A DNA stretch of 59,594 nucleotides. It comes from an uncultured virus (IMG/VR IMGVR_UViG_3300044675_006217) (Duplodnaviria; Heunggongvirae; Uroviricota; Caudoviricetes). The position numbers and the translations under genes were made by a program. The stretch lies in IMG/VR virus record IMGVR_UViG_3300044675_006217, one strand, 5' to 3'. This document shows, in pieces, positions 7,764 to 47,638 of this stretch; position 1 is the first letter of the stretch, and every line of letters starts with the position of its first letter. The notes below the pieces were generated by a model. That model was not told where the DNA came from. It did no database searches and saw nothing but the letters and a program-made list of their open reading frames with translations.

Positions 7764-8708
7764 ATGTTAACAAGTAAAAATATGAACGAATATATTGTAG
7801 GGGATAATTTAATCGAACTAACTAAACTAAGAGAAGAGAAAAAAAAAATTAATTTAATTTATTTTGACCCCCCATATAACACTGGAAGAGACTTTGATGA
7901 CTTTGACGATAAGTATAAATCATACGAATCATACCGAAATGATTTTATAAAACCAAGATTAGAAATCATGCATAATCTATTGGTTAGTTCTGGTGTTATA
8001 ATTGTTCATGTGGAACCTTCAGTTTCACACCATATTAGAATTGTATTAGATGAAGTGTTTGGTGAAAAAAATTTTAGAAATGAAGTAGTTTGGAAAAGTG
8101 GGGGCAACAAAAAATCATCTAAAAAACTGATGAGATTTCACGACACCATTATCGTGTATTCAAAATCCACAAAGTATACGTATAATCCACAGTATTTACC
8201 ATATAACGATGATTACAAGAAAAAAAATAATCTAAAAAAAGATGATATTGGTGAGTACACCACCAGCGCCGCTCACAACTCACAACCTAATGTTGTACAG
8301 AGACCTAATTTAAGATACGAATGGAATGGACATTTCAAACAATGGTGGTGGTCTATAGAAAAAATGAAAGAGTTAGATTCCCAAAAAAGATTGGAATACA
8401 ATGCTAATGGAATCCCAAGAGTAAAAAAATACTTACACGAAATGGATGGTATTCCGGTAAGGGATTTGTGGATTGACATTAACCAAATACAAGGAAGCGA
8501 AAAACTTGATTATGCAACACAAAAACCTGTAAAACTATTAGAAAGAATAGTAAATATGTTTTCTAACAAGGGAGATTTAGTACTTGACCCGTTTGCGGGT
8601 TCTGGAACAACAGGTAGGGCGTGTATTAATACTAATAGAAATTACATAATGTTAGATATTAATAGTAAAGGAAAAAAAATATTTGAAGACTCAATTTTAA
8701 AAAAATAA
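7764..8708 (+). CDS. N6-adenine DNA methyltransferase (beta class, N6_N4_Mtase)
   Basis: DPPYNTG, FRNEVVW, TQKP and LDPFAGSGTT motifs. Confidence 0.93.
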   Translation: MLTSKNMNEYIVGDNLIELTKLREEKKKINLIYFDPPYNTGRDFDDFDDKYKSYESYRNDFIKPRLEIMHNLLVSSGVIIVHVEPSVSHHIRIVLDEVFGEKNFRNEVVWKSGGNKKSSKKLMRFHDTIIVYSKSTKYTYNPQYLPYNDDYKKKNNLKKDDIGEYTTSAAHNSQPNVVQRPNLRYEWNGHFKQWWWSIEKMKELDSQKRLEYNANGIPRVKKYLHEMDGIPVRDLWIDINQIQGSEKLDYATQKPVKLLERIVNMFSNKGDLVLDPFAGSGTTGRACINTNRNYIMLDINSKGKKIFEDSILKK

Positions 8709-9246: not shown

Positions 9247-9837
9247 ATGAGAAAGAAGAAAACAGAAATGAAATCACAAGACAAAAGATATATGCTTTTT
9301 ATTTTCGGTGATTTCACAGAAATGGAAAAGTTTATTGAGGACATTTCGTATCAGCTAATAACGGTGGTTTCTAGTGAATACCTAAAGTTTAATTATGGTG
9401 AGTTTGGTGTAGTTTTACACTTTAGAACCAAAGAACCTTTTATGGAACTAAAAGAATACGTTGATATGTGTTTGGACGGAGTAGTTGAGCAGTATTTTTT
9501 GATGGAGGCGACAGAAAACGTGGACATCAAAATGGAACGAAAATTGAAGAGAGATTTTTTAAATATAGATGGAGTAAAAAAAGAAACAAAAACAAAAGGA
9601 GTACATAAAGATGAATTATCAGAAGAAAAAAAGAAAAGAATGAACAATATAATGGAGTTCATATTTCCACTAACGGAAGACATGATTAAAAATCCATTTT
9701 TAAAAGAAGAAAAAAAAGAGAAACCGACTGTAGACCAAATTTTGGATAAGATTTCAGAAAAAGGTATAGAGTCATTAACAGAGGAAGAAAAACAAATATT
9801 AGACAATTATGGAAAGAGAGAAAACCGAGGAAATTAA
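9247..9837 (+). CDS. hypothetical protein with C-terminal DUF6576-like helical motif
   Basis: VDQILDKISEKGIESLTEEEKQILD. Confidence 0.65.
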   Translation: MRKKKTEMKSQDKRYMLFIFGDFTEMEKFIEDISYQLITVVSSEYLKFNYGEFGVVLHFRTKEPFMELKEYVDMCLDGVVEQYFLMEATENVDIKMERKLKRDFLNIDGVKKETKTKGVHKDELSEEKKKRMNNIMEFIFPLTEDMIKNPFLKEEKKEKPTVDQILDKISEKGIESLTEEEKQILDNYGKRENRGN

Positions 9838-10624
9838 ATCTTCAAACCCGATTAACCAAGACGAAATTCAACTTTATTTAAAAGACATTCGAAAGTTAAA
9901 AGTAATGACACCTGAAAGGGAAAAAATCCTTTCAAAAATGATTACAGATGAAAACTGTACTGAAAGAGAAAAAGAGTTAATCTATAAAGAACTTTTAGAG
10001 GGCAACTTACGTTTTGTTATTACCGTTGCAAAACAATATCAAAATCAAGGTATTGACCTATCAGACTTAATTGCTGAAGGAAATTATGGACTGTTAAAGG
10101 CCATTAAGAATTTTGATTGGACCAAGAACAACCGTTTTATTTCTTATGCTGTTTGGTGGATTAAACAATCAATCCTTCAATCACTAAATGATAATTCAAG
10201 AACAATCAGACTCCCGGTTAATGTTGTTCAAGATATGCAAAAAGAAAAAAAGGTTTTGGAAAAAACTAACGGGGAATTATCCGCAAAGTTTGCACAACTT
10301 CCAAAAATTGTTGATTTGGATATGCACATCAATGAAGACGGAGACACATTAATTGATGTAATAAAAAATGAAAATATCGTTTCACCTGATGAAATGTTTT
10401 CAACAAAGGACACTCTCAAACTTAAAATGATGGAAATTATGTCAGTATTGGATGAGCGTGAAAAAGTAATTATTGAGGATTACTACGGTATTACCGGCAC
10501 ACCTCGTACTTTGGAAGATATTGGTACAGATTTTGGTCTTACAAAAGAAAGAGTTCGTCAAATCAAAGAAAAGGCTCTTCGTAAACTACGAAACGAATGT
10601 TCAGATTTATTTGAATATTTATGA
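9809..10624 (+). CDS. RNA polymerase sigma70-family factor (RpoD/RpoS-like)
   Basis: YLKDI (region 1.2), NLRFVITVAKQY and DLIAEGNYGL (2.1/2.2), RFISYAVWWIKQSI, RTIRLP, TLEDIG..FGLTKERVRQI..KALRKLR (region 4). Confidence 0.95.
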   Translation: MEREKTEEIKSSNPINQDEIQLYLKDIRKLKVMTPEREKILSKMITDENCTEREKELIYKELLEGNLRFVITVAKQYQNQGIDLSDLIAEGNYGLLKAIKNFDWTKNNRFISYAVWWIKQSILQSLNDNSRTIRLPVNVVQDMQKEKKVLEKTNGELSAKFAQLPKIVDLDMHINEDGDTLIDVIKNENIVSPDEMFSTKDTLKLKMMEIMSVLDEREKVIIEDYYGITGTPRTLEDIGTDFGLTKERVRQIKEKALRKLRNECSDLFEYL

Positions 10625-19298: not shown

Positions 19299-20261
19299 AT
19301 GAAAAACTATTACGAAATATTAGGTGTAAGCGAAAATGCAACACAAGAGGATATAAAAAAAACATATAAAAAACTAAGTAAGCAATACCATCCAGATGTA
19401 AACCCAAACGGTGAAGAAAAATTTAAAGAAATTTCTGAAGCCTATGATATTTTAGGGGACGACAATAAAAGAAGTGATTACGACATGAAACGTAGAAACC
19501 CATTTGGTAATGGTGGGTTTGGGTCAATTTTTGAGGAAATGATGGGGCATTCACAAAGACAACCTAAACCAGCTGACAAAATTATTGAAATAGTAATCAC
19601 ACCTGAAGAATCTTATAAAGGTGTAGAAAAAACAATCGAAGTTGACACAAATAAATCTTGTGAAAGTTGCTCAGGAACAGGTGGAACTAAAAAAACATGC
19701 ACAAGATGTGCAGGTAGAGGGTTTATTGTACAAACAGTTGGTACAGGATTTTTTAAAACACAAATACAATCAAATTGTTTTGAATGTAAAGGTACTGGTG
19801 AACATTTAATTGATGCTTGTGGATTTTGTTATGGTAATGGGGTTATTTCTAACCACAGCAAGTTTAACGTACAAATACCAAACAACGTAGATAATGGTGA
19901 CTTTATGAGGATGAGAGGTATGGGGGATGAAATACCTAAATATGGTAGAGGTGATTTAATTTTAAAAGTTTTGTGTATAAAACACAACAATTTTGAAAAA
20001 TCAGGAAATGACCTGATTTATTATCTAAAATTAAATTTCAAAGACTTATTAATAAACGACCAAGTTGAAATACCTCATCCTGATGGTAATATAAAAATAA
20101 ATCTACCTGAAGGATTTGATACTGAAAAACCATTAAGACTTTTCAAAAAAGGATATAAAGTTGATGGTACTGTTGGTAATTTTTACATAAAAATAAGCAT
20201 ACAGAATAATCTGACTTTAACTAACGAACAAAGAGAACAAATTAATAATATATTAAAATAA
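19299..20261 (+). CDS. dnaJ: DnaJ chaperone
   Basis: J-domain with HPD, four CxxCxGxG repeats and a C-terminal domain (GDL motifs). Confidence 0.95.
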
Positions 20262-20467: not shown

Positions 20468-21307
20468 ATGTTAAGTTATATTGGAGGTAAGAGTAAAATT
20501 GGAAAGTGGATAGTCCCTTTCTATGATAAAGATATGGAAGTCTATTTAGAGACTTTTGGAGGGATGTTTTGGTGTTTCTATAATATGGACCTAAAACAGT
20601 TCCCAAATCTTAAAAAAGTGGTTTATAATGATTTTAATCCACTGAACTATAATCTATTCAAGTGTGTTCAAAACCCTACTGAATTGTTAAGGGCAATCAA
20701 CTCTATTGATTGTCAAAAACAAGGTGTGGACATTACTCCTGAAATTTATAAACAACAATTTATCAACTTTCAGGCTGAAGTTTTTAATCAAGGTTTCAGC
20801 GTAGAACCTGGCGATTATGAGGTGGCGGCTAAATACGTTTATATTCTAACACAAGTATTTAGTGGGTCCAAACCTGAAACATCCAACTTTATTGACTTAA
20901 AAGGTAAATATAAATCAAAATATCTTACCTTTAGAGATAAGTTGTCAAAACCTGATTGGGTAGACCATTTTTTAAAAATTACTGATGTTGAAAATATGGA
21001 TTTTGCCGATGTCATTAACAAATATGACTCACCATCCACTTACATTTATTTGGACCCACCTTACTGGAAAACTGAGAATTACTACTCTAATCATGATTTT
21101 GATAGACAAGACCACGAAAGATTGGCAAATGGTTTACATAATGTCCAAGGTAAGTTTTCATTATCATATTACGATTTTGACTTATTGCATCAGTGGTTTC
21201 CTGAAGACCAATACACTTGGGTTAAAAAAGAGTTTGCAAAAGCAGCTGCAGCCAAGAAAGGAGAGAAACAAAATATGGGTGAAGAATTACTCATTATGAA
21301 CTACTAA
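20468..21307 (+). CDS. Dam-like (D12 class) adenine methyltransferase
   Basis: SYIGGKS, variant motif I (ETFGGMFW), VYNDFN, YLDPPY. Confidence 0.9.
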   Translation: MLSYIGGKSKIGKWIVPFYDKDMEVYLETFGGMFWCFYNMDLKQFPNLKKVVYNDFNPLNYNLFKCVQNPTELLRAINSIDCQKQGVDITPEIYKQQFINFQAEVFNQGFSVEPGDYEVAAKYVYILTQVFSGSKPETSNFIDLKGKYKSKYLTFRDKLSKPDWVDHFLKITDVENMDFADVINKYDSPSTYIYLDPPYWKTENYYSNHDFDRQDHERLANGLHNVQGKFSLSYYDFDLLHQWFPEDQYTWVKKEFAKAAAAKKGEKQNMGEELLIMNY

Positions 21308-26538: not shown

Positions 26539-27126
26539 TTAGTTTATTATTTTAAATTTATGTTTATAACAAGTTTTTCTAATAGAACCATTATAACCAT
26601 TATTTACTTTCTTACCTCTAAGTGAATTTGACAATTTCATTCTAACATTTCTATGTTTTCCTTTAGCAAACCCATTTTCAATTAAATAGTTTGCTCCATC
26701 AACTAAATTGTCAAAAACAAACTCATTTTTATTATAAATATTAATCAAAACAAATCTTTCAAAATTACCATTCTTTTTTTGATTATATTTTGACAATTTA
26801 TTTTTAACTTCGTCGTTGTACGTGTTCCTTCTAAATTCATTAACTGTCGCTAAGTTGTAACCAAAATTAGATTCGTTTGATTTAAAAATTGTAATATATT
26901 TATTTTCTAACTGAATTAATTCTATTGAATTACATAGTTCTAAAATTTCGAATGTAAAGTTTTCTTCACCAAACTTGTTATATGAATTTTGTAAATGACT
27001 ATTGTCGTGTTTATTATTACGCAACATCCAAAAATGTTTGTATTTTCTGGCATGAACATTAACAGAACTACCTATATAGGTTTTACCATCAACTAAGTTT
27101 CCTATTTTATATATTCCTGCATTCAT
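26539..27126 (-). CDS. GIY-YIG homing endonuclease (free-standing)
   Basis: GIYKI...YIGSS..R..H...L, E..YI, GYN motifs. Confidence 0.9.
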   Translation of the reverse strand: MNAGIYKIGNLVDGKTYIGSSVNVHARKYKHFWMLRNNKHDNSHLQNSYNKFGEENFTFEILELCNSIELIQLENKYITIFKSNESNFGYNLATVNEFRRNTYNDEVKNKLSKYNQKKNGNFERFVLINIYNKNEFVFDNLVDGANYLIENGFAKGKHRNVRMKLSNSLRGKKVNNGYNGSIRKTCYKHKFKIIN

Positions 27127-31618: not shown

Positions 31619-32470
31619 ATGATAGAAACAGGAAGAATAATTAATGGAGATTGTATTGAGGTAATGAAGACATTACCAGAAGGGTGTATTGATTTGGTTG
31701 TTACAAGTCCACCATATGGTGTGGGAATTGATTATGACGTACATGAAGATGATGTTGAGTTCACAGAGTATGTTGAATTTGCTAAGTCTTGGTTGTCTGA
31801 AACATATAGATTATTAAAAGACGATGGACGTATCGCTTTGAACATTCCCTATGAAATCAACAGACAAAAAAAAGGTGGACGTATTTTCTTTGTTTCTGAA
31901 ATGTGGCAAATCATGAAAGAAATTGGATTTGGTTTTTTTGGTATTGTCGACCTTGAAGAACAATCACCACATAGAAGTAAAACTACAGCTTGGGGTTCTT
32001 GGATGAGCCCATCATCACCTTATATCTACAACCCAAAAGAGTGTGTTATTTTAGCATATAAAAAACATCATATTAAAAAAGTTAAAGGAGAACCGCAATG
32101 GATAGGAACACCAACTGAGGTTGAAAATAAAGATGGTATAGTAAGAACTAAAAATGTATATGAAGAACAGGATAAGAAAGAGTTTATGGAACTTGTGTTT
32201 GGTCAGTGGAATTACTTTGCAGATACTAAATCACTCACCAAGGCAACGTTCTCGATGGACATTCCAACCAAAGCGATTAAAATACTATCCTACAAGAACG
32301 ATATAGTTATGGACCCATTCGCTGGTAGTGGTACTAGTTTAGTGGCCGCACAAATACTTGACCGAAGGTGGTTGGGAATAGAACTAAGTGAAAATTATAC
32401 AAATATCGCAAGAACAAGAGTTGAATACTTCAAAACATTAGAAACTCTACAAGAAACCCCACCATTATAG
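31619..32470 (+). CDS. DNA methyltransferase (beta class, SPPY; likely N4-cytosine)
   Basis: GDC, VTSPPY, MDPFAGSGTS. Confidence 0.92.
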   Translation: MIETGRIINGDCIEVMKTLPEGCIDLVVTSPPYGVGIDYDVHEDDVEFTEYVEFAKSWLSETYRLLKDDGRIALNIPYEINRQKKGGRIFFVSEMWQIMKEIGFGFFGIVDLEEQSPHRSKTTAWGSWMSPSSPYIYNPKECVILAYKKHHIKKVKGEPQWIGTPTEVENKDGIVRTKNVYEEQDKKEFMELVFGQWNYFADTKSLTKATFSMDIPTKAIKILSYKNDIVMDPFAGSGTSLVAAQILDRRWLGIELSENYTNIARTRVEYFKTLETLQETPPL

Positions 32471-33505: not shown

Positions 33506-35013
33506 AAATTATTATAACTGAAAGTCAATTTAGAATGATGATTAAAGAATCAGGTATTAGAGATATTAATGATATTGCAAAAAGATACCCAAAGGCTAAA
33601 ATTTATTTTCATCAAGATTTAGATGGTGTTACAACGGCAATAGCCATGAAAAACTATTTGGAACAAAATGGTATTGATGTTGTTGATTGTGAAGTAATAC
33701 AGTACGGGTCAAAAGAATTTGCAATAAAAAAACCTGAAGGTGAAGGGAACATTATGCCGGTCTTAGTTGATTTTGCACACGGTAAACCAATGTTTGTTAT
33801 TCATACAGACCATCACGATAGTCAATCCGGTGTCGAAGACGATACTGCGACAAGTTTTAAACACGCAAGGTCCAATGTTGAAACAATTTCTCAAACAATT
33901 TCACCAAAAGATTTATTTAAAGACGAAGATTTATATCTAATATCGACAGTCGATTCGGCAAACTTTGCTGTAAATCAAATAACTCCAGAAATGGTAATGA
34001 ATTTTGTTTTTAAGTATGACAAATATGAAAGTGTTAAAAGAAATAAAATGATGATGGGGCTTGTCGTTAATAAACTTCTTTTATCGTATAAAAATGATAA
34101 GGTTAATGGTAGAAATTTTCTTGAATATTTAGTAATGAACTGCGAACCATCACTTGAAAATTTATATAATACAATAACAAAAATTGCAAAAGAACAAGGA
34201 TATGCCACGGTTGAAACTATGACACAAAATCAAGAAAAATTCATAGAAGCAAGAAAGAAAGAAGGGGCAATAGAAAAAACAGGAAATGTTATATCACAAT
34301 ATGGGTTAGGTAGTATGAGAAAAGGTTCTTATGATAGATACGTTCCATTTAGAATACACCCTGACGCAGACTTTCTAGTTACAGGTCTTGGAGGGCAAGT
34401 CGGAATGGTTCAAGCATCTTGTAATCCATTTAAAGAAGAAAGAGCACTTAAAGGTATAAACTTAGGTGAAATCAAAGATGAAGTTTTAAATATCTTCAAA
34501 CCTGAATTAGAAAAAGAAATATTAAGTTTTAGAATTATTAAAAGAATCTCAGAAAGAGAGGCAACACCTGAGTCAGTTGGATTCACATCAAAAGATATGA
34601 TGGCGTTATATGGTAAAATGCCTTCATTTGATTCTGAAAAACTAACTATTAATGGTTATGACTTTTTGAAAGCAAATTCAGGAGGACATAAATGTATTAC
34701 CAACATATCAGGAATAAACTTCCTATATAGTGGATATGATAAACCATACACGAAAGATTTACCTGAAGAAACATTACCGATTGCAAATTACGAAGGAGAT
34801 AATAATTTTGTTAAAGACATTAAACAAAAACTTTTAAGATTTAGAAAGTTGTCAGAAAAACAAATTGAAGCGGCTCTTAATCAAATAAGAAGAGAAGGTA
34901 TAAATTTTGAAGATGAAACAGAAAGTACTCCAAAAAGAACTTATTCGGATTTAGTAAAAGATATGAAAAATACTTTTGTGGATATTTTAAATAAAAAAAT
35001 TGAAAATAGTTAA
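33502..35013 (+). CDS. DHH-family phosphoesterase with virion-type leader
   Basis: HQDLDG, LVDF, TDHH, VDS and SGGH motifs; MKIIITESQF..MIKE leader. Confidence 0.7.
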   Translation: MKIIITESQFRMMIKESGIRDINDIAKRYPKAKIYFHQDLDGVTTAIAMKNYLEQNGIDVVDCEVIQYGSKEFAIKKPEGEGNIMPVLVDFAHGKPMFVIHTDHHDSQSGVEDDTATSFKHARSNVETISQTISPKDLFKDEDLYLISTVDSANFAVNQITPEMVMNFVFKYDKYESVKRNKMMMGLVVNKLLLSYKNDKVNGRNFLEYLVMNCEPSLENLYNTITKIAKEQGYATVETMTQNQEKFIEARKKEGAIEKTGNVISQYGLGSMRKGSYDRYVPFRIHPDADFLVTGLGGQVGMVQASCNPFKEERALKGINLGEIKDEVLNIFKPELEKEILSFRIIKRISEREATPESVGFTSKDMMALYGKMPSFDSEKLTINGYDFLKANSGGHKCITNISGINFLYSGYDKPYTKDLPEETLPIANYEGDNNFVKDIKQKLLRFRKLSEKQIEAALNQIRREGINFEDETESTPKRTYSDLVKDMKNTFVDILNKKIENS

Positions 35014-35366
35014 AACATTGAGGTTTTAATTTTGTCACCCTCTTTAATGTTTAATTCTTTACAAGTACCACCATTAAGTTCCAAAACAGTATTTCCAAAT
35101 CCTTCAAACATTTCACAATCTTCCTCATTACCACAAGGAAGACAATTATGATTTATTTTGGTAATCACATTACCGTCAATCATTATTATATCTAAAGGAA
35201 TAATACAATTGTACATCCAAAAAGTTTGGGTTTTTTTCTCTGGCATCATAAATAACATACCATCAAAATTATTATCAAACTTTTTACCCATCATACCTTT
35301 CTGAATTGAATCAGTATTAGCAACGACTTTACAATTAAAAATGTTATCTTTGACTAAAATTTTCAC
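35010..35366 (-). CDS. DUF192 family protein
   Basis: KGMM, GMLF, FWMYN..IPLDII, VLELNGG. Confidence 0.85.
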   Translation of the reverse strand: MKILVKDNIFNCKVVANTDSIQKGMMGKKFDNNFDGMLFMMPEKKTQTFWMYNCIIPLDIIMIDGNVITKINHNCLPCGNEEDCEMFEGFGNTVLELNGGTCKELNIKEGDKIKTSMF

Positions 35367-35422
35367 ATAATATAAATATTTCAAAAAAATTTAAAAGCAA
35401 TAAAACTTTTGATAAGCAAAGA

Positions 35423-35468
35423 TATATTTATATTTATCACAAAAAAATCAAAAAATTTTTATTGTAAT
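35423..35468 (+). repeat. 46-bp direct repeat, copy 1 (copy 2 at 35974-36019)
   Basis: TATATTTATATTTATCACAAAAAAATCAAAAAATTTTTATTGTAAT is identical at both sites. Confidence 0.9.
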
Positions 35469-35485
35469 ACGAACAAATATCAAGA

Positions 35486-35956
35486 ATGAAATCTATGATA
35501 AATATTTTTGAAAGTGGCCATATTCCAACTAATATTTTATTTGAGGGAGAAACTAAAAATACTTTTGGTAAAAAAATAAAAATTATGGGTTTAGATGAAA
35601 ATTTAATTGGTTATGTGAATGTAGTATCTTTTGATAATGGGTGGGAATTAGATTATGACATACCTAGATTATATGAAGAAAAAAGTTGGTGCAAAAAAAA
35701 TTGTGATAAAAACTTTTTTAATAGGGACAATAGCACACACATTTACGATGTATATGTAAATGAAAATTTTAGAGGAAATGGTTTTGGAAAACAAATTATG
35801 AATTTGGCTCACGATGTATCTAAACAGGAAGGATTTAAGTATTGTACTTTAATTACTCATCGAGAAAACAATACCGCACAAAACTTATATAAAAATTTAG
35901 GATACGATTTACACTATTCAGATGACGTAAAAGATTTTTATTTTCTTGAATTGTAA
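35486..35956 (+). CDS. GNAT N-acetyltransferase
   Basis: VYVNENFRGNGFGK (acetyl-CoA motif A) and N..A..LY..LGY. Confidence 0.9.
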   Translation: MKSMINIFESGHIPTNILFEGETKNTFGKKIKIMGLDENLIGYVNVVSFDNGWELDYDIPRLYEEKSWCKKNCDKNFFNRDNSTHIYDVYVNENFRGNGFGKQIMNLAHDVSKQEGFKYCTLITHRENNTAQNLYKNLGYDLHYSDDVKDFYFLEL

Positions 35957-35973
35957 CTTTTTGTAAACTTAGC

Positions 35974-36019
35974 TATATTTATATTTATCACAAAAAAATC
36001 AAAAAATTTTTATTGTAAT
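35974..36019 (+). repeat. 46-bp direct repeat, copy 2
   Basis: Identical to 35423-35468. Confidence 0.9.
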
Positions 36020-36100
36020 GTTTGACAAATCAAAATAATAGTATTAGATTTGTAAAACAATTGGGAAACGACCCATTGTATAATTTGAAAAATTGAAAGT

Positions 36101-36244
36101 ATGAGTGAAGATTTAATCAACATTTCAGAGATTTTTTATTATTTTGACGATAAAGGAAGAAAACTTTATACTTCAAATGAAGTCTTTGCAAGTGTGAGAG
36201 CAAACTACTACGGAACTGAAGATGTTTTTGTAGAAAAAGTTTAA
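36101..36244 (+). CDS. small hypothetical protein (47 aa)
   Basis: MSEDLINISEIFYYFDDKGRKLYTSN...; follows the promoter at 36021-36052. Confidence 0.6.
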   Translation: MSEDLINISEIFYYFDDKGRKLYTSNEVFASVRANYYGTEDVFVEKV

Positions 36245-36250
36245 AAAAAA

Positions 36251-36348
36251 TTTGACAGTCTCAAATTAAATACATAACTTTGTAAAAGATTTGAAACTTA
36301 TAGGTGATGAAAGATACTCAGTATTCAAATCACAAACGTTCTTTGAAA
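36251..36348 (+). promoter_or_regulatory. promoter, hairpin and boxA-like antitermination leader
   Basis: TTTG (36251), N20, TAACTTTG (36275); GTGAT/ATCAC hairpin; GTTCTTTGAAA at 36338. Confidence 0.6.
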
Positions 36349-36431
36349 TTTAATACGAACAAATTGTTCAAACAAAATTTAAAAAAAAAGATTAACCCCC
36401 TTTTCTTTAAAATTTGTAAAACGAAGAGTTC

Positions 36432-37234
36432 AATGGGCCGTGTATGGTCCATTAAAATAAACCACGAAAGTGGGATAAAGTGAATCAAAAGTGTAATTGA
36501 TTTGCGTCTTGGTTGTCTTCGGATAATCGAGGTCGAGTACACAAGCGGGATACCGTTTAACCTTTAGTACCGAGGGCAACGCTGTAGGGAAAGTGGTTAG
36601 ATGATTGGGCGATGTGGGTCGTCTAATTGAGGTGGGAACACCAATAGGAATAACTCGTAGGAATTTTGCAAAACAAAGTGTTCCAACACTTTTATTGCGA
36701 GTTCCATTATTAGAGGATACTTAAAACCGAAAGGTATGTTGATGTACAGGTGGTGCTGTTATTGACCTTGACCGACTCCCACCAAGGAGTTAGTTTCGAA
36801 GTAGTCTTGAAATATGGAAATGGGGACATTTCAGAGAGTAGTTGTGTATTCTATTGTTCAAAAGATAATAGAGCCCGTGACGGACCACTACTTTCACAAT
36901 CCACGACACAAAACTTAATTATTATTAACTATTAATTTTAAATAAGGAAAAGTGTCCGTCAGGTCTAATCGAAAGGTGACTACATAGTCGTGAGTTGTTC
37001 ACGGCACATAAAGCTCCCAAGGCTGAGTGTATTTTTACAAAAGACCTCTATTCCCGCAAGGAAGAGTTGGGGAGGCATCCTCGAAGAGAGTTGAGTAATA
37101 AGAGAGTAGTTTAGACCTCAAGGAGTGATTCACCTAAATAATCGTCACTGAGAAATACCATTCAAAAGATGGTGGATAAGAGTAGAAACAATAATGACTC
37201 TAAAGGTTCTCACAATAAACGTGTAATCTCAGCG
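36432..37234 (+). ncRNA. large ornate structured RNA, probably GOLLD-class
   Basis: ~800-nt GC-enriched region with no credible ORF, many GNRA/UUCG hairpins and long-range helices, and two domains joined by an AT-rich linker. Large structured RNA is well supported; the GOLLD identity is an inference. Confidence 0.7.
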
Positions 37235-37332
37235 TTTTTTTTTAATGGAGCCACCGGTAAAAAAATTGATGGATAGTAAAATATTATTATCCATTTTTTT
37301 GTGCAATTAATTTTTTTATATATCTTTGTGGT

Positions 37333-37716
37333 ATGGAAAAAAATCAATTAGTTAAAGACAATCAAATAGCGGTAATCAAAAAATTCTTAGGTAAAAACAT
37401 TTTCAAATTAGTTAATTTATATAAATGGAGTGAGTATAACAACACTGTTGTCAAAATAACAAATATTAGAAAATATTCAGACGGGTATAACAAATATCGT
37501 ACTCACGAAAAATACATTTATCAATTCGATGTAATTGTTGATATGAAATGTGATTATTGGGCTTACTCAACTCAATATCAAAAAAATCACGCTAGAAATG
37601 CAAATAGATACATAAGACGATTAATCGATGCAACAATTAAAGAAGAATTGAAATATTTTGCTATATCAGATATTGATGAAATAGTAGTTAAAAAAATTAC
37701 TTGGGATTATTTGTAA
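37333..37716 (+). CDS. hypothetical protein
   Basis: Follows TATCTTTG (37321). Confidence 0.65.
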   Translation: MEKNQLVKDNQIAVIKKFLGKNIFKLVNLYKWSEYNNTVVKITNIRKYSDGYNKYRTHEKYIYQFDVIVDMKCDYWAYSTQYQKNHARNANRYIRRLIDATIKEELKYFAISDIDEIVVKKITWDYL

Positions 37717-37749
37717 TATTGAAATATTATTTTTATATTTGTAGAAGAT

Positions 37750-38016
37750 ATGGCAACAATAAAAAATATACTACTTGTTCACCCTAAGCACGGGGAAATA
37801 TTAAATGAAACTTTTGTTGATGAGATTCAGTTTAAAATATTCTTAAACATGATTCACTCATCATTGACTCTTAAAGAAGACTTTTCAACTTTTAATGGGA
37901 AGGATTTCTTGATACATATTCCCTTTAATATGTTAAAAGAGTCATTAGTTTTGGGGACCAACAAGGACATAACCATGGCTGAAGTTCTTGTTGCAAAATC
38001 TAAATTGGAGGGGTAG
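37750..38016 (+). CDS. hypothetical protein
   Basis: Follows TATATTTG (37734). Confidence 0.65.
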   Translation: MATIKNILLVHPKHGEILNETFVDEIQFKIFLNMIHSSLTLKEDFSTFNGKDFLIHIPFNMLKESLVLGTNKDITMAEVLVAKSKLEG

Positions 38017-38081
38017 TTTCTTTGTTCTATAAAAACAAAGTGGTGGAGAGATGTTGGCACGAACCGTGTCGACCCAAAATT

Positions 38082-38108
38082 AAGGTGAAGGAGACTTCAC
38101 CTTTTTTT
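38082..38108 (+). terminator. intrinsic terminator
   Basis: AAGGTGAAG-gaga-CTTCACCTT-TTTTT. Confidence 0.8.
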
Positions 38109-38129
38109 ATTAATGATATATTTATTGTT

Positions 38130-38498
38130 ATGAATATTTTATCAACCATACGAAAGATTTTAATTGAAGAATCATTCCATCAGGATTTTATTTATGAAGA
38201 CATTTACGGCAATGTTGAAGAAATAAACTTGATACATGAGGCGGAGTATCAGGGACGAAAAGTTCAACTTGGTAAGATTATGCAAGGAGACATCAAAAAG
38301 TTCAAGGTATACGTTAAAAACGACAAAGGAAAGGTTGTTAAAGTGAACTTTGGGTTTGGTGGAAAATCAGCAAAAGGAAAACGAATGGTGATTAAAAAGA
38401 ACAATCCTGAAAGGAGACGTTCATTTAGAGCAAGACACAATTGCGATAATCCTGGCCCAAGATGGAAACCAAGATATTGGGCTTGTAGAACTTGGTGA
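38130..38498 (+). CDS. conserved basic phage protein (AEYQGRKV...SFRARHNC...RYWAC)
   Basis: Motif familiar from T4-like/huge phages; late leader IRKILIEE. Confidence 0.7.
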   Translation: MNILSTIRKILIEESFHQDFIYEDIYGNVEEINLIHEAEYQGRKVQLGKIMQGDIKKFKVYVKNDKGKVVKVNFGFGGKSAKGKRMVIKKNNPERRRSFRARHNCDNPGPRWKPRYWACRTW

Positions 38499-38502
38499 TA
38501 TT

Positions 38503-38802
38503 ATGGGAAGAATTATTATAACAGAAGAACAACTTGAAGAGGTTGTAAAACAACTTAAAGAAAACCATGAAGGAGGTTCTTACATGGCAAAACAACAACT
38601 TTTTACAATTGCAACTTTGGCACATAAAATGTGGGAAATGATGGAAGAAGGTGAACAACTTGAAGATTGGATGGAAACAAAAATTGCCCAATCAGAACAA
38701 TCAATTTTGGCGGTTGTTAAATCATATATGTATGATGAAATGGAAGATAGAATTAAGGGGTCAAGAGGATTTAATCCTGATGATTTAATTATTGGAATGT
38801 AA
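38503..38802 (+). CDS. hypothetical protein (virion-type leader)
   Basis: MGRIIITEEQL...LKE leader; MAKQQL and LEDWMETKI motifs. Confidence 0.7.
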   Translation: MGRIIITEEQLEEVVKQLKENHEGGSYMAKQQLFTIATLAHKMWEMMEEGEQLEDWMETKIAQSEQSILAVVKSYMYDEMEDRIKGSRGFNPDDLIIGM

Positions 38803-38898
38803 AAATTATCTTTTTTATAATTAACCCTCCTTTTTTTAATTGGGGGGTTTTTTATTTAAACAAAGTTTTATATATTTGTAATATAAATTAATTCAAAT

Positions 38899-38971
38899 GG
38901 TCCCATGATGTAATTGGATAACATATTTCTCTTCTAAAGAAATCTTTCAGGTTCGAACCCTGATGGGACTA
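38899..38971 (+). tRNA. tRNA-Arg(TCT)
   Basis: GGTCCCA/TGGGACT acceptor, TTTCT-cTTCTaa-AGAAA anticodon arm, GGTTCGAACC T arm. Confidence 0.88.
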
Positions 38972-39032
38972 CAAAAAAATAATAGGTATTGGTTCGTTTT
39001 TATTAAATTATAATATTTATAATAAAACAAAC

Positions 39033-39623
39033 ATGGGAATTGACAAAAAATATAAAAAAGAAGACCTTATAAGGTTAATTTTTACAGAAAATAAATCTTA
39101 CCGAGAAATTGGTAGAATTTATTCTGTTAGTGATACTTACATAAAAAAAATTGCCAATAAATTAGGGATTACTTTAACAAGGCGGAGAAAATTCCCTGAA
39201 GGTTACAAACCTCATAATTTTGGAAATTCAAAAAAACATACGTGTAAAAATTGTAATAAAGAATTTATACCATACACAAAAAAAAATTTATATTGTTCTA
39301 TGACATGTGATAATCAATATAAAGTACTTAAAAAGTATGAAGATTATATTGAGAATCAGGAAAAATATTGTTACGAAAGAGATATGAGATTTTTAAAAAA
39401 ACATATTTTAAACGAACAAAATAATTGTTGTAATATATGTGGGATAAAAAATATGTGGAACGAAAAAGAATTAATTTTTGTATTGGACCATATAGACGGA
39501 AATGCGTCAAATAATATGAGAAATAACTTAAGGTTGATTTGTCATAATTGTGACTCACAGTTGGACACATATAAGTCTAAAAATAAAAACTCAGCTAGAA
39601 AAAAAAGATATATTAAAAACTAA
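39033..39623 (+). CDS. HNH endonuclease
   Basis: CNIC, LDHIDG..SNN..NLRLIC.NCD; N-terminal HTH and Zn motifs. Confidence 0.9.
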   Translation: MGIDKKYKKEDLIRLIFTENKSYREIGRIYSVSDTYIKKIANKLGITLTRRRKFPEGYKPHNFGNSKKHTCKNCNKEFIPYTKKNLYCSMTCDNQYKVLKKYEDYIENQEKYCYERDMRFLKKHILNEQNNCCNICGIKNMWNEKELIFVLDHIDGNASNNMRNNLRLICHNCDSQLDTYKSKNKNSARKKRYIKN

Positions 39624-39634
39624 AAAAAATAATT

Positions 39635-39760
39635 ATGGAAGACATCTTTGAACAAGAACATTATGATTTTATTAACTCAGAAGATTATTTTCAATACATG
39701 AAAGAATTTTTTGAATATGAAGAAAAAGAAGCTTTATCTTCAGAATTAAATGAATTATAA
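39635..39760 (+). CDS. small acidic protein (41 aa)
   Basis: MEDIFEQEHYDFINSEDYFQYMKEFFEYEE... Confidence 0.5.
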   Translation: MEDIFEQEHYDFINSEDYFQYMKEFFEYEEKEALSSELNEL

Positions 39761-39785
39761 TTAAGGTAGGTTAATAGATGGTATA

Positions 39786-39855
39786 AGTCGTATAGCTCAG
39801 TTGGTAGAGCAATCCATTTATGGACGTGTCACAGGTTTGAATCCCGTTGCGACTT
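39786..39855 (+). pseudogene. tRNA-like element with 4-nt anticodon loop
   Basis: AGTCGTA/TGCGACT acceptor, canonical D arm, TCCA-ttta-TGGA arm, T-loop TTTGAAT. Confidence 0.65.
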
Positions 39856-39929
39856 ATCAAAATTAAAAAAGGTGTTGGAAACAACACCTTTTTTGTTTGT
39901 TGGCATATTTATATTTAAATAATAAAATT

Positions 39930-40610
39930 ATGAATAGAAGTTATAGTAAAATTAGACACATGCAACAATCAAACTTGATGTTGGAAAATAGAATAATGGA
40001 AGAAAAATCAAGACAATTTTTGATGGAAATCACCGATGACAATGGTCTACTTACCGCTTATCCTGATTTAAAAACAGTATTGGAACCAAAACTTAAAGCT
40101 GCCGATAAAACAGGAGAAACAAGTGTTGGTGTGTATGGTTCAAAGGCATATTTTAGAGCGGCAAAAGGTCAGACTAATTGGACTATATATGTCTATACTT
40201 TTGGACCAAGAACATATGGTAGACCCAAATATGCTAATCCGGCAACGGTTCTAACTTTAGATTTTCCTGATACTACAATGAATGAAGTTCCGTATTTCTT
40301 TTATGGTAGTCCTGACACAGGTAGCGGCTCAGCAGCCCAAAAATTTTATTTGTCGGGAAGTTTTGGTGACATAATAGCCAATAATGGTTCATTGAAATTA
40401 TCTACTAAACTCGAAGTAAAAACTGACGACGAAGTTGCTGCCGATATATCCAAACATTTTCCTGGTTTTGACGCCGCAAAGTTAGTTACAATTGCAAACA
40501 ATTTAAAATTAGGTTCCTACGCAAAAAATCTATCTAAAGAAACTAGAGCTAAATTAACAGGAGTCGCTAAAACGGTTTATGATACAATTGCAGGACCGGC
40601 TCAAAAATAA
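39930..40610 (+). CDS. cassette-array protein 1 (ends PAQK)
   Basis: Leader ...KSRQFLME; unique body. Confidence 0.75.
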   Translation: MNRSYSKIRHMQQSNLMLENRIMEEKSRQFLMEITDDNGLLTAYPDLKTVLEPKLKAADKTGETSVGVYGSKAYFRAAKGQTNWTIYVYTFGPRTYGRPKYANPATVLTLDFPDTTMNEVPYFFYGSPDTGSGSAAQKFYLSGSFGDIIANNGSLKLSTKLEVKTDDEVAADISKHFPGFDAAKLVTIANNLKLGSYAKNLSKETRAKLTGVAKTVYDTIAGPAQK

Positions 40611-46032: not shown

Positions 46033-46136
46033 TTTGGTAAATCAAAATAAACTACATATATTTGTATAACAAACAACGGGGGTGAGAAAATGTGATGGTG
46101 GTCTCACCCCCACAACAATAGAAAAAAGTTCTTTGA
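46033..46136 (+). promoter_or_regulatory. tRNA-operon promoter, hairpin and boxA-like leader
   Basis: TTTG (46033), N20, TATATTTG (46057); GGGGGTGAGA/TCTCACCCCC hairpin; GTTCTTTGA at 46128. Confidence 0.65.
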
Positions 46137-46243: not shown

Positions 46244-46318
46244 GGTGTGGTAGCTCAGTAGGTAGAGCAAAGAGCCCGAAAACTCTTGTGCCGATGGTTC
46301 GATTCCATTCCCATACCA
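46244..46318 (+). tRNA. atypical tRNA-Phe(GAA)-like gene with 8-nt anticodon loop
   Basis: GGTGTGG/CCATACC acceptor; AAGAG-cccgaaaa-CTCTT; extra nucleotide in the T/acceptor junction. Confidence 0.55.
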
Positions 46319-46462
46319 CAAAAGAATTTACAACGGACAAGGCTTAGGCAAGTGAGTTGAAAATGAGTAGTAGGAGATTTAATCGTTTAGACTACAGAAA
46401 GTTTGATACAATAGATTGGTGGGATGCGAGTGGTTGACCAAAATTCTTTTAAATACAAACAT

Positions 46463-46612: not shown

Positions 46613-46679
46613 AGTCAGGTGGCGTTATTGGAGTACGCATCGTAAATGAAGATTGCAGGTTCGAATCCTGTCCTGACTA
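46613..46679 (+). ncRNA. tRNA-like element with truncated anticodon arm
   Basis: AGTCAGG/CCTGACT acceptor; GCGT/ACGC D stem; CAGGTTCGAATCCTG T arm; no 7-nt anticodon loop. Confidence 0.6.
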
Positions 46680-46751: not shown

Positions 46752-46823
46752 GGCCCATTCGTCTAAAAGTAAGGACAGTTGGTTTTCATCCAACAAATCT
46801 CGGAGCGTTACCGGGATGGGCTA
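46752..46823 (+). tRNA. tRNA-Glu(TTC) with non-canonical T-loop
   Basis: GGCCCAT/ATGGGCT; GTTGG-ttTTCat-CCAAC; T-loop AGCGTTA. Confidence 0.8.
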
Positions 46824-46874
46824 CAAACCTAATCCTTTGTGATAGGCTTTTATCCACTAAGAGATAAATTAAAT

Positions 46875-46993
46875 AGTCAGGTGGCGGAATTGGTTAGACG
46901 CTGCTGTGGGGCGACACCACTGTATAAAAATAGCATAAGCTCCTATGATGAAGTACAAATCATAGGGTACAGGTTCAAATCCTGTCCTGACTA
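46875..46993 (+). ncRNA. tRNA-like element with expanded anticodon domain and long variable arm
   Basis: Same acceptor and T arm as 46613; Leu-like D arm; TGCTGT/ATAGCA and CCTATGAT/ATCATAGG helices. Confidence 0.6.
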
Positions 46994-47561: not shown

Positions 47562-47638
47562 GGTCTTATAGCTCAGCAGGTTAGAGCAACGGTCTCATAA
47601 ACCGTAGGTCTCTGGTTCGAACCCAGGTGGGACCACCA
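47562..47638 (+). tRNA. tRNA-CAT (elongator Met or Ile2)
   Basis: Full cloverleaf; ACGGT-ctCATaa-ACCGT; encoded CCA. Confidence 0.9.

Follow-up and report, generated by a model that had tools for sequence, protein, structure and literature searches.

The window analysed here is a stretch of 59,594 nt from an uncultured virus of the Caudoviricetes (IMG/VR record IMGVR_UViG_3300044675_006217), and the element considered is a large structured RNA encoded on its plus strand at positions 36432–37243. Taken as a whole, the locus is best explained, with high confidence, as a GOLLD RNA gene borne by a large uncultured freshwater phage. The RNA is ~810 nt long and comprises two domains with an AU-rich linker. 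The 5′ domain (36432–36833, +) is conserved in 69 other non-redundant contigs, with identities to the window of 60–86% (median 69%), and is collinear by eye with nt 1–420 of env-38, a GOLLD RNA of solved structure. It carries a hairpin at 36435–36450 and the loop motifs GAAA (36466–36469), GUGG (36614–36617), GGAA (36635–36638), GUGGUG (36750–36755) and GGGA (36823–36826), all on the plus strand. The 3′ domain (36834–37235, +) encloses the variable AU-rich linker (36896–36953, +), which was left unaligned and differs in length among homologues. Both ends of the linker are engaged, since CCAC at 36901–36904 pairs with the GUGG loop at 36614–36617, and GG at 36946–36947 pairs with a CC loop at 37017–37018. 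The last hairpin (37220–37222/37232–37234) is directly followed by a U-tract of nine T (37235–37243, +), and in many homologues, too, the RNA is followed by a run of T.

At the gathering thresholds of Rfam 15 the whole window gave eight matches, of which seven were to tRNA and one was to GOLLD RNA. The GOLLD match (RF02032; 36834–37235, +) covered model positions 1–416 of 416 and scored 328.3 bits (E-value 2.5e-93), which was more than twice the gathering score of 150 bits. The original prediction, made from the letters of the DNA, had described an ornate non-coding RNA of ~800 nt that was probably of the GOLLD class. The full-length match supported this class, and all the strings quoted in the prediction were found at the positions given. 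GOLLD is also in keeping with the size, the division into two domains with an AU-rich linker, the setting in a phage and the many tRNAs nearby. The proposed span of 36432–37234 was right at its start but fell ~10 bases short at the 3′ end, as the RNA extends to 37243 with the U-tract that had been noted there.

The Rfam model is limited by design to the conserved 3′ domain, and the ~400 nt of the 5′ half were analysed separately. The comparative analysis started from 94 full-length copies, the window included, which were reduced to 81 unique sequences and then to a non-redundant set of 70 that were mutually <95% identical. A smaller alignment of 18 sequences, which contained an env-38-like locus ~65% identical to the window, was also used; alignment was done with MAFFT without reference to structure. 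On the 18 sequences, RNAalifold gave 208 pairs, and one or more compensatory double changes supported 151 of them. With the 70 sequences, 219 pairs in 43 helices were obtained, nearly all of them 88–100% canonical and covarying, in both halves of the RNA. The helices of the 3′ domain (36834–37235) were 88–100% canonical with covarying pairs, and those of the 5′ domain were mostly ≥90% canonical, again with covarying pairs. A curated structure of 238 pairs was 95.0% paired on the 18-sequence alignment vs. 78.1% in shuffles; 166 of its pairs had changed on both sides (95.2 in shuffles) and its covariation score was 0.544 (0.213 in shuffles), values that none of the 500 shuffles reached in any case. 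When the partners were slid by 1–3 columns, pairing fell to 38–43%, a control that is somewhat favoured because the structure was derived from the same sequences.

A mutual-information scan of the 70 sequences yielded pairings that are not nested. Those that covaried and were 99–100% canonical were 36441–36442 with 36540–36541, 36978–36980 with 37144–37146, 36947 with 37017, 37177 with 37226, 36616 with 36902, and 37122 with 37134. The first of these belongs to a pairing of the loop 36440–36445 with 36537–36542, in which the pair 36442/36540 occurred as CG in 33 sequences, GC in 24, AU in 8 and UA in 5. The crossing helices 36976–36980/37144–37148 and 37122–37123/37133–37134 also covaried. The contact between the loop at 36614–36617 and the start of the linker at 36901–36904 comprised four pairs that were canonical in 18/18 sequences, two of them with changes on both sides, and in the larger set 36615/36903 and 36616/36902 were 97–99% canonical and covarying. 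The pair 36947/37017 was 100% canonical and took G-C, C-G and A-U forms. The nested helices together with at least five crossing or long-range pairings showed that selection keeps both halves of the RNA in shape. A further long-range pairing suggested by RNAalifold (36535–36543/37222–37230) was dropped, as it had zero covariation and several non-pairs.

Nine individual helices had been read from the letters beforehand, and eight of them found support in the alignments. The long-range helix GAGAGTAGT (36834)/ACTACTTTC (36887) was canonical in 69–70 of the 70 sequences at each position of 36834–36842/36887–36895, and the helix TGACGGAC (36878)/GTCCGTCA (36954) that crosses it was equally well kept at 36879–36885/36954–36960, both with several pair types. 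The pseudoknot proposed to span the AU-rich linker is therefore real. The pairing strings AGGTCTAA (36961)/TTAGACCT (37111) and the small hairpins CCAC-GAAA-GTGG (36462–36473), ACC-GAAA-GGT (36727–36735) and CC-GCAA-GG (37054–37061) were likewise present and form supported helices. Two hairpins held in part. In AATGGGCC/GGTCCATT (36432–36453) the core GGGCC/GGUCC at 36435–36450 covaried but the outer AAU/AUU pairs were not conserved among the 70 sequences; in the 11-bp UUCG stem at 36507–36532, which has four G·U pairs, the basal five to six pairs were conserved but the distal part was missing in 9 of the 18 aligned sequences. The remaining helix, CTGAGA (37148) with TCTCAG (37227), did not stand, since Rfam and RNAalifold instead pair 37150–37155 with 37206–37211. 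None of its six pairs covaried, and the only near-invariant ones were U37149-A37231 (69/69) and G37150-C37230 (69/70); TCTCAG lies in the terminal loop, whose own covarying contact is at 37226.

Relatives of the RNA were found mainly in viral contigs. The first scans of IMG/VR used 14-mers from the 5′ domain and gave mostly chance matches, and of 227 loci just 28 gave a blastn match to the RNA at E ≤ 1e-3, or 26 at the stricter cut-off of E ≤ 1e-10. A two-block pattern of the 5′ domain recovered at least 120 IMG/VR loci, on contigs of up to 321 kb, and the same approach applied to 185,579 prokaryote genomes gave three small contigs of metagenome-assembled genomes, labelled Saccharibacteria, Bacteroidetes and Woesearchaeota. 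The nearest virus record (120,302 bp; 41% complete by CheckV) has 82% of the window's sampled words in common with it and yields the same GOLLD match. A copy of the RNA with 99.3% identity lies on an IMG/VR contig of 216,575 bp, and the phage genome probably exceeds 200 kb. Ten records matched in a blastn search of GenBank phages, of which the best was an uncultured phage of 642 kb (LR756502.1; 74% of the query at 64.9% identity, the 5′ half included). In this phage (1922–2410 of its locus) the GOLLD copy scored 275.3 bits and is followed after 10 nt by a tRNA, for which ARAGORN gave no anticodon.

The conserved RNA starts at ~36432, and the sequence upstream is unrelated even in relatives that are 88% identical. 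The mature 3′ end is likely at the U-tract. Further downstream there is an AU-rich hairpin of 12 bp with a U run (37268–37301, +; minimum free energy fold of 37215–37310, −19.4 kcal/mol, z −2.45), which may act as an intrinsic terminator for the primary transcript. This hairpin was missed by a simple terminator scan, which did no better than its shuffles and whose single terminator-like site lay on the minus strand inside the RNA. Upstream, a promoter-like element TTGACA-N18-TAACTTTG (36252–36283, +) conforms to the motif TTG-N17–21-TAnnTTTG, and a primary transcript might possibly start near 36290, ~140 nt before the conserved RNA. This motif occurred at 12 sites on the plus strand, eight of which fell within the 11.5 kb of intergenic DNA (10633, 20433, 36022, 36252, 37299, 46034, 49323, and 52570), so that its density was ~9 times higher in intergenic (0.70/kb) than in coding DNA (0.08/kb). 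The site at 46034 directly precedes a tRNA cluster. The motif resembles the promoter consensus of the Bacteroidota and may hint at the host.

The region also turned up in RNA libraries prepared from lakes. Four metatranscriptome libraries of this kind, belonging to four studies of similar year and habitat, contained contigs that covered 36366–37269; near-identical contigs spanned 36376–37269, 36454–37250, 36454–37204, and 36454–37178, and contigs of 118 nt lay at 36366–36483 in two runs. One of the covering contigs was 894 nt long and had six differences from the window. One contig ended at 37269 and another at 37250, which hints only weakly, if at all, at where transcripts end. Words from 36300–37400 were found in 14 lake or freshwater DNA runs and in six lake metatranscriptome runs, the latter holding 0.63–0.67 of the words. 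The four RNA runs were compared over 34000–40000, and within this range no contig lay on 34000–36210 or 37417–40000, a result that was not used as evidence. One RNA run also contained a contig of 1078 nt with a word depth of 2522, which matched the window only in short pieces and seems to represent a further GOLLD variant of very high abundance in that library. Depths of 63 to 230 were seen for other partial matches in the RNA runs.

The surrounding genome had a G+C content of 26–35% and carried nearly all of its genes on the plus strand. Twenty of the 68 open reading frames (ORFs) matched PHROGs, among them primase, exonuclease, SbcCD, RpoD-like sigma factor, thymidylate synthase and endolysin. 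Three DNA methyltransferases were assigned by PHROGs on the plus strand (7764–8708, 20468–21307, and 31619–32470), which also encodes the RpoD-like sigma factor (9809–10624) and a DnaJ-like protein (19299–20261). A GIY-YIG-type homing endonuclease was assigned by PHROGs at 26539–27126 on the minus strand, and an HNH-type homing endonuclease (39033–39623, +) lies between the tRNA hits at 38899 and 39786. In tblastn searches against cultured phages the sigma factor and the DnaJ-like protein matched at ≤37% identity, to phages of many hosts that included jumbo and huge phages. Neither these matches nor the three contigs of metagenome-assembled genomes, which were too short and too varied in their labels, pointed to one host.

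Between 38899 and 47638 the window has seven tRNA hits by Rfam and six by ARAGORN. Two on the plus strand were called by Rfam alone (39786–39855, 46.1 bits; 46613–46679, 41.8 bits) and a tRNA-Glu (46752–46824, +) by ARAGORN alone. A tRNA-like gene at 46244–46319 (+; Rfam tRNA, 37.6 bits) was given a four-base anticodon (cgaa) in an 8-nt anticodon loop by ARAGORN and might be a tRNA of the frameshift-suppressor type or a decayed one. The stretch 46878–46993 (+) has, by eye, nearly the same ends as 46613–46679 with ~50 extra bases in the middle, and may be an interrupted tRNA. The sole tRNA(CAU) of the window, at 47562, has its 1:72 position paired by eye.

Flanks of ~1.2 kb upstream and 0.6 kb downstream of the RNA were examined at the 69 homologue loci. 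At least one tRNA was present in the flanks of 40 loci, always on the strand of the RNA, and at 13 loci a tRNA started within 150 nt downstream, often within 30 nt. A same-strand tRNA(CAU) was found at 31/69 loci, and 32 of the 68 flank tRNAs had this anticodon. Initiator tRNAs of bacteria are marked by a mismatch at 1:72 and by G:C pairs at the end of the anticodon stem, and 20 of the 32 tRNA(CAU) combined the mismatch with at least two such G:C pairs. Nine of the flank tRNA(CAU) lie between 11 nt before and 26 nt after the estimated 3′ end of the RNA.

GOLLD was shown in 2025 to form a protein-free cage larger than the ribosome. According to Kretsch et al. (2025, PMC12286853), env-38 has 833 nt, with a 5′ domain (nt 1–420) that forms the cap, a 3′ domain (nt 421–833) that forms the ring, and a linker (nt 497–538) that is disordered inside the cage; its 14-mer of D7 symmetry is held together by bridges B1–B10, as seen by cryo-electron microscopy (PMC12286853), and the structure is listed as PDB 9MEE (PMC12990946). 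All ten bridge motifs, donors and receptors alike, were found in the window. They are B1, with the GAAA donor at 36466–36469 and the receptor U36988·G37004; B2, GAGGG·AAC at 36572–36580; B3, GGAA at 36635–36638; B4, GGA at 36824–36826 with UCC at 36682–36684; B5, GUGGUG at 36750–36755 with ACCA at 36781–36784; B6, with the UCAAAAG donor at 36858–36864 and the receptor G37070·U37081; B7, GG at 36946–36947 with CC at 37017–37018; B8, the loop CGCAA at 37055–37059; B9, the loop GGCA at 37074–37077; and B10, UCAAAAG at 37162–37168.

These motifs were well kept among the 70 sequences. GAAA of B1 and GGAA of B3 were present in 70/70 and GUGGUG of B5 in 67/70; UCAAAAG of B6 was present in 54 (with CCAAAAG in 14 more) and that of B10 in 55. 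The kissing core of B4 was kept in 64 to 70 of the 70 sequences, depending on the pair, and B7 is the contact whose pair covaries between G-C, C-G and A-U. The loop L21a was CGCAA or UCGAA, which is the GC/CG switch described by Kretsch et al. (PMC12286853). Judged from these motifs, the RNA of the window would fold and assemble as an RNA-only cage like that of env-38. It would be made from the plus strand, probably from the promoter-like element at 36252–36283, and its transcript would end at the U-tract or at the hairpin 37268–37301. The 5′ cap domain and the 3′ ring domain, joined by a floppy linker, would then fold, and the copies would lock together, protein-free, via loop–loop pairs and A-minor contacts. 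The result would be a closed hollow cage with the linkers inside.

Several observations weigh against this picture. The contigs in the RNA libraries indicate presence and not transcription, strand, ends or level, and DNA carry-over is possible. A generic sigma-70 promoter scan of the window did no better than shuffles (nine sites vs. 6.4 ± 2.4), and the site immediately 5′ of the RNA (36408–36416) does not match TAnnTTTG. No tRNA adjoins the RNA in the window, the nearest being a tRNA-Arg at 38899, 1.65 kb downstream. The mapping onto env-38 was made by eye from the supplement sequence and the bridge table, and single residues may be off by one. The oligomer state is not readable from sequence, and the stoichiometry of GOLLD varies. 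The hairpin at 36727–36735 is much shorter than its extended counterpart in env-38, a short form that is common to 54 of the 70 family members.

It may be, although we doubt it, that the RNA assembles unlike env-38, as a 10- or 12-mer or another closed form, or that it works as a monomer or with protein partners, so that the cage is not its working form in the cell. GOLLDs are described as 10-, 12- or 14-mers according to small structural differences (PMC12990946), as in Streptococcus agalactiae (Sag), where the full-length RNA is a 12-mer and the 3′ domain alone a 10-mer, vs. the 14-mer of env-38. The short hairpin and a 5′ domain ~20 nt shorter than that of env-38 are differences of this kind, and the passages of PMC12286853 and PMC12990946 drawn on here contain no in-cell structure of any GOLLD. 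However, all ten bridge motifs of env-38 are present, the loops L21a and L21b that link the half-shells in the 14-mer are both kept, and B7 covaries, as a contact should do only when it is under selection. We favour assembly in the manner of env-38.

As to function, GOLLD RNAs occur in phages and prophages near tRNAs, rise during lysis and bind ribosomes in pull-downs (PMC12286853 among the sources), and some carry a tRNA in the linker. A speculative proposal, held with low confidence, is that the cage serves the translation and tRNA programme of the phage in lytic growth, e.g., by keeping hold of tRNAs or ribosomal particles or by protecting them. The GOLLD of the Lactobacillus brevis prophage accumulates on lytic induction and is dispensable for phage production; as quoted in the literature, this is the sole genetic test in print, and it weakens functional claims.

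A speculative alternative is a role in counter-defence, in which the RNA would act as a compartment that conceals phage molecules, or would draw off host immunity of the RNA-sensing or tRNA-cleaving type as a decoy or sponge. An RNA that is phage-borne, rises in lysis (PMC12286853) and is dispensable in one laboratory host might be of this kind, and the genome of the window has many anti-restriction-like methyltransferases. Yet the present analysis showed no link between the RNA and a gene for defence or counter-defence, and the tRNA linkage in relatives points at least equally to translation, so that we regard such a role as unlikely. A more specific version of the translational proposal starts from the tRNA(CAU) at 31/69 loci, of which 20/32 are initiator-like, and from a literature search that found no paper tying GOLLD RNA to "initiator tRNA" (Weinberg 2009 and its supplement were not covered). 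It would hold that a lake-phage subfamily of GOLLD is functionally tied to initiator tRNA, the cage storing, shielding or delivering tRNA-fMet or engaging initiating ribosomes. We consider this quite improbable, and the window's own copy is without a neighbouring tRNA(CAU). If it were true, the tie would be part of the translational take-over by large phages.

Two further explanations can be set aside. That the RNA belongs to a different or new class that merely resembles GOLLD (ROOL, a group I or II intron, or an unnamed class) has in its favour that 36432–36833 matches no Rfam family at E ≤ 1, but it is practically excluded and already refuted by the Rfam results: GOLLD matched over its full length with a score more than double the threshold, and a permissive scan of 36200–37400 returned the same match and nothing else at E ≤ 1, neither ROOL nor the group I and group II introns that the original prediction had named as checks. 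Across the window, ROOL gave no match at its gathering score. Moreover, the model is confined to the 3′ domain, the 5′ region is described as less conserved (Kretsch et al., 2025, PMC12286853), and the 5′ half is by eye collinear with that of env-38. Nor is it credible that the region is protein-coding or the 5′ leader of the gene at 37333, with incidental helices, since the mechanical plus-strand ORFs inside it (36304–36483, 59 aa; 36750–36935, 61 aa) are open and in frame in just 8/70 and 2/70 homologues, substitutions keep base pairs and not codons, the U-tract, the terminator-like hairpin and a promoter-like site at 37299 separate the RNA from the next ORF, and the neighbours differ among homologues and are often tRNAs. 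The RNA has no conserved reading frame.

GOLLD is among the largest structured RNAs of bacteria and phages. The copy in the window belongs to a known class, of which it is a clear but ordinary case, and no new type of element comes with it. Its value is that of a clean copy of full length, and the large freshwater phage that carries it is represented in RNA libraries from lakes. In the alignment of 70 relatives covariation is seen in the cap domain, in the pseudoknots and in one or more of the contacts that would build the cage, and together with the frequent initiator-type tRNA neighbours of the relatives this set could help to frame experiments on function.

Among known systems, ROOL is likewise a large, ornate RNA associated with phages or tRNAs, and it too assembles, as 8-mers or 6-mers, into RNA-only cages that enclose a disordered linker. 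It is unrelated in sequence and fold to the RNA described here, and 36200–37400 gave no ROOL match at E ≤ 1. The GOLLD of the L. brevis prophage (Weinberg et al., 2009) is also phage-borne, but its carrier is a Firmicute prophage. The Sag GOLLD belongs to the same family, has the conserved 3′ domain P14–P27 and forms a cage, and it is described as being without P9, P11a–c, P21b and parts of P7 and P10 (PMC12990946). In contrast, the window keeps the hairpins of L21a and L21b type (37051–37063 and 37067–37084) and a 5′ domain of the env-38 type, P1–P13. The closest counterpart is env-38. Apart from the shorter hairpin and 5′ domain, the window differs from it in its diverged sequence (the env-38-like locus being ~65% identical), in having a C-G pair at B7, where env-38 has U-A, and in that env-38 lies downstream of a tRNA-Met (PMC12286853). 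The lengths are similar (~810 vs. 833 nt), the cap-forming 5′ domain, the ring-forming 3′ domain and the AU-rich linker occupy the same relative places, the order of helices and loop motifs matches by eye along the whole RNA, and both RNAs are of aquatic metagenomic origin. By eye, the subtype of the RNA in the window thus appears to be that of the solved env-38.

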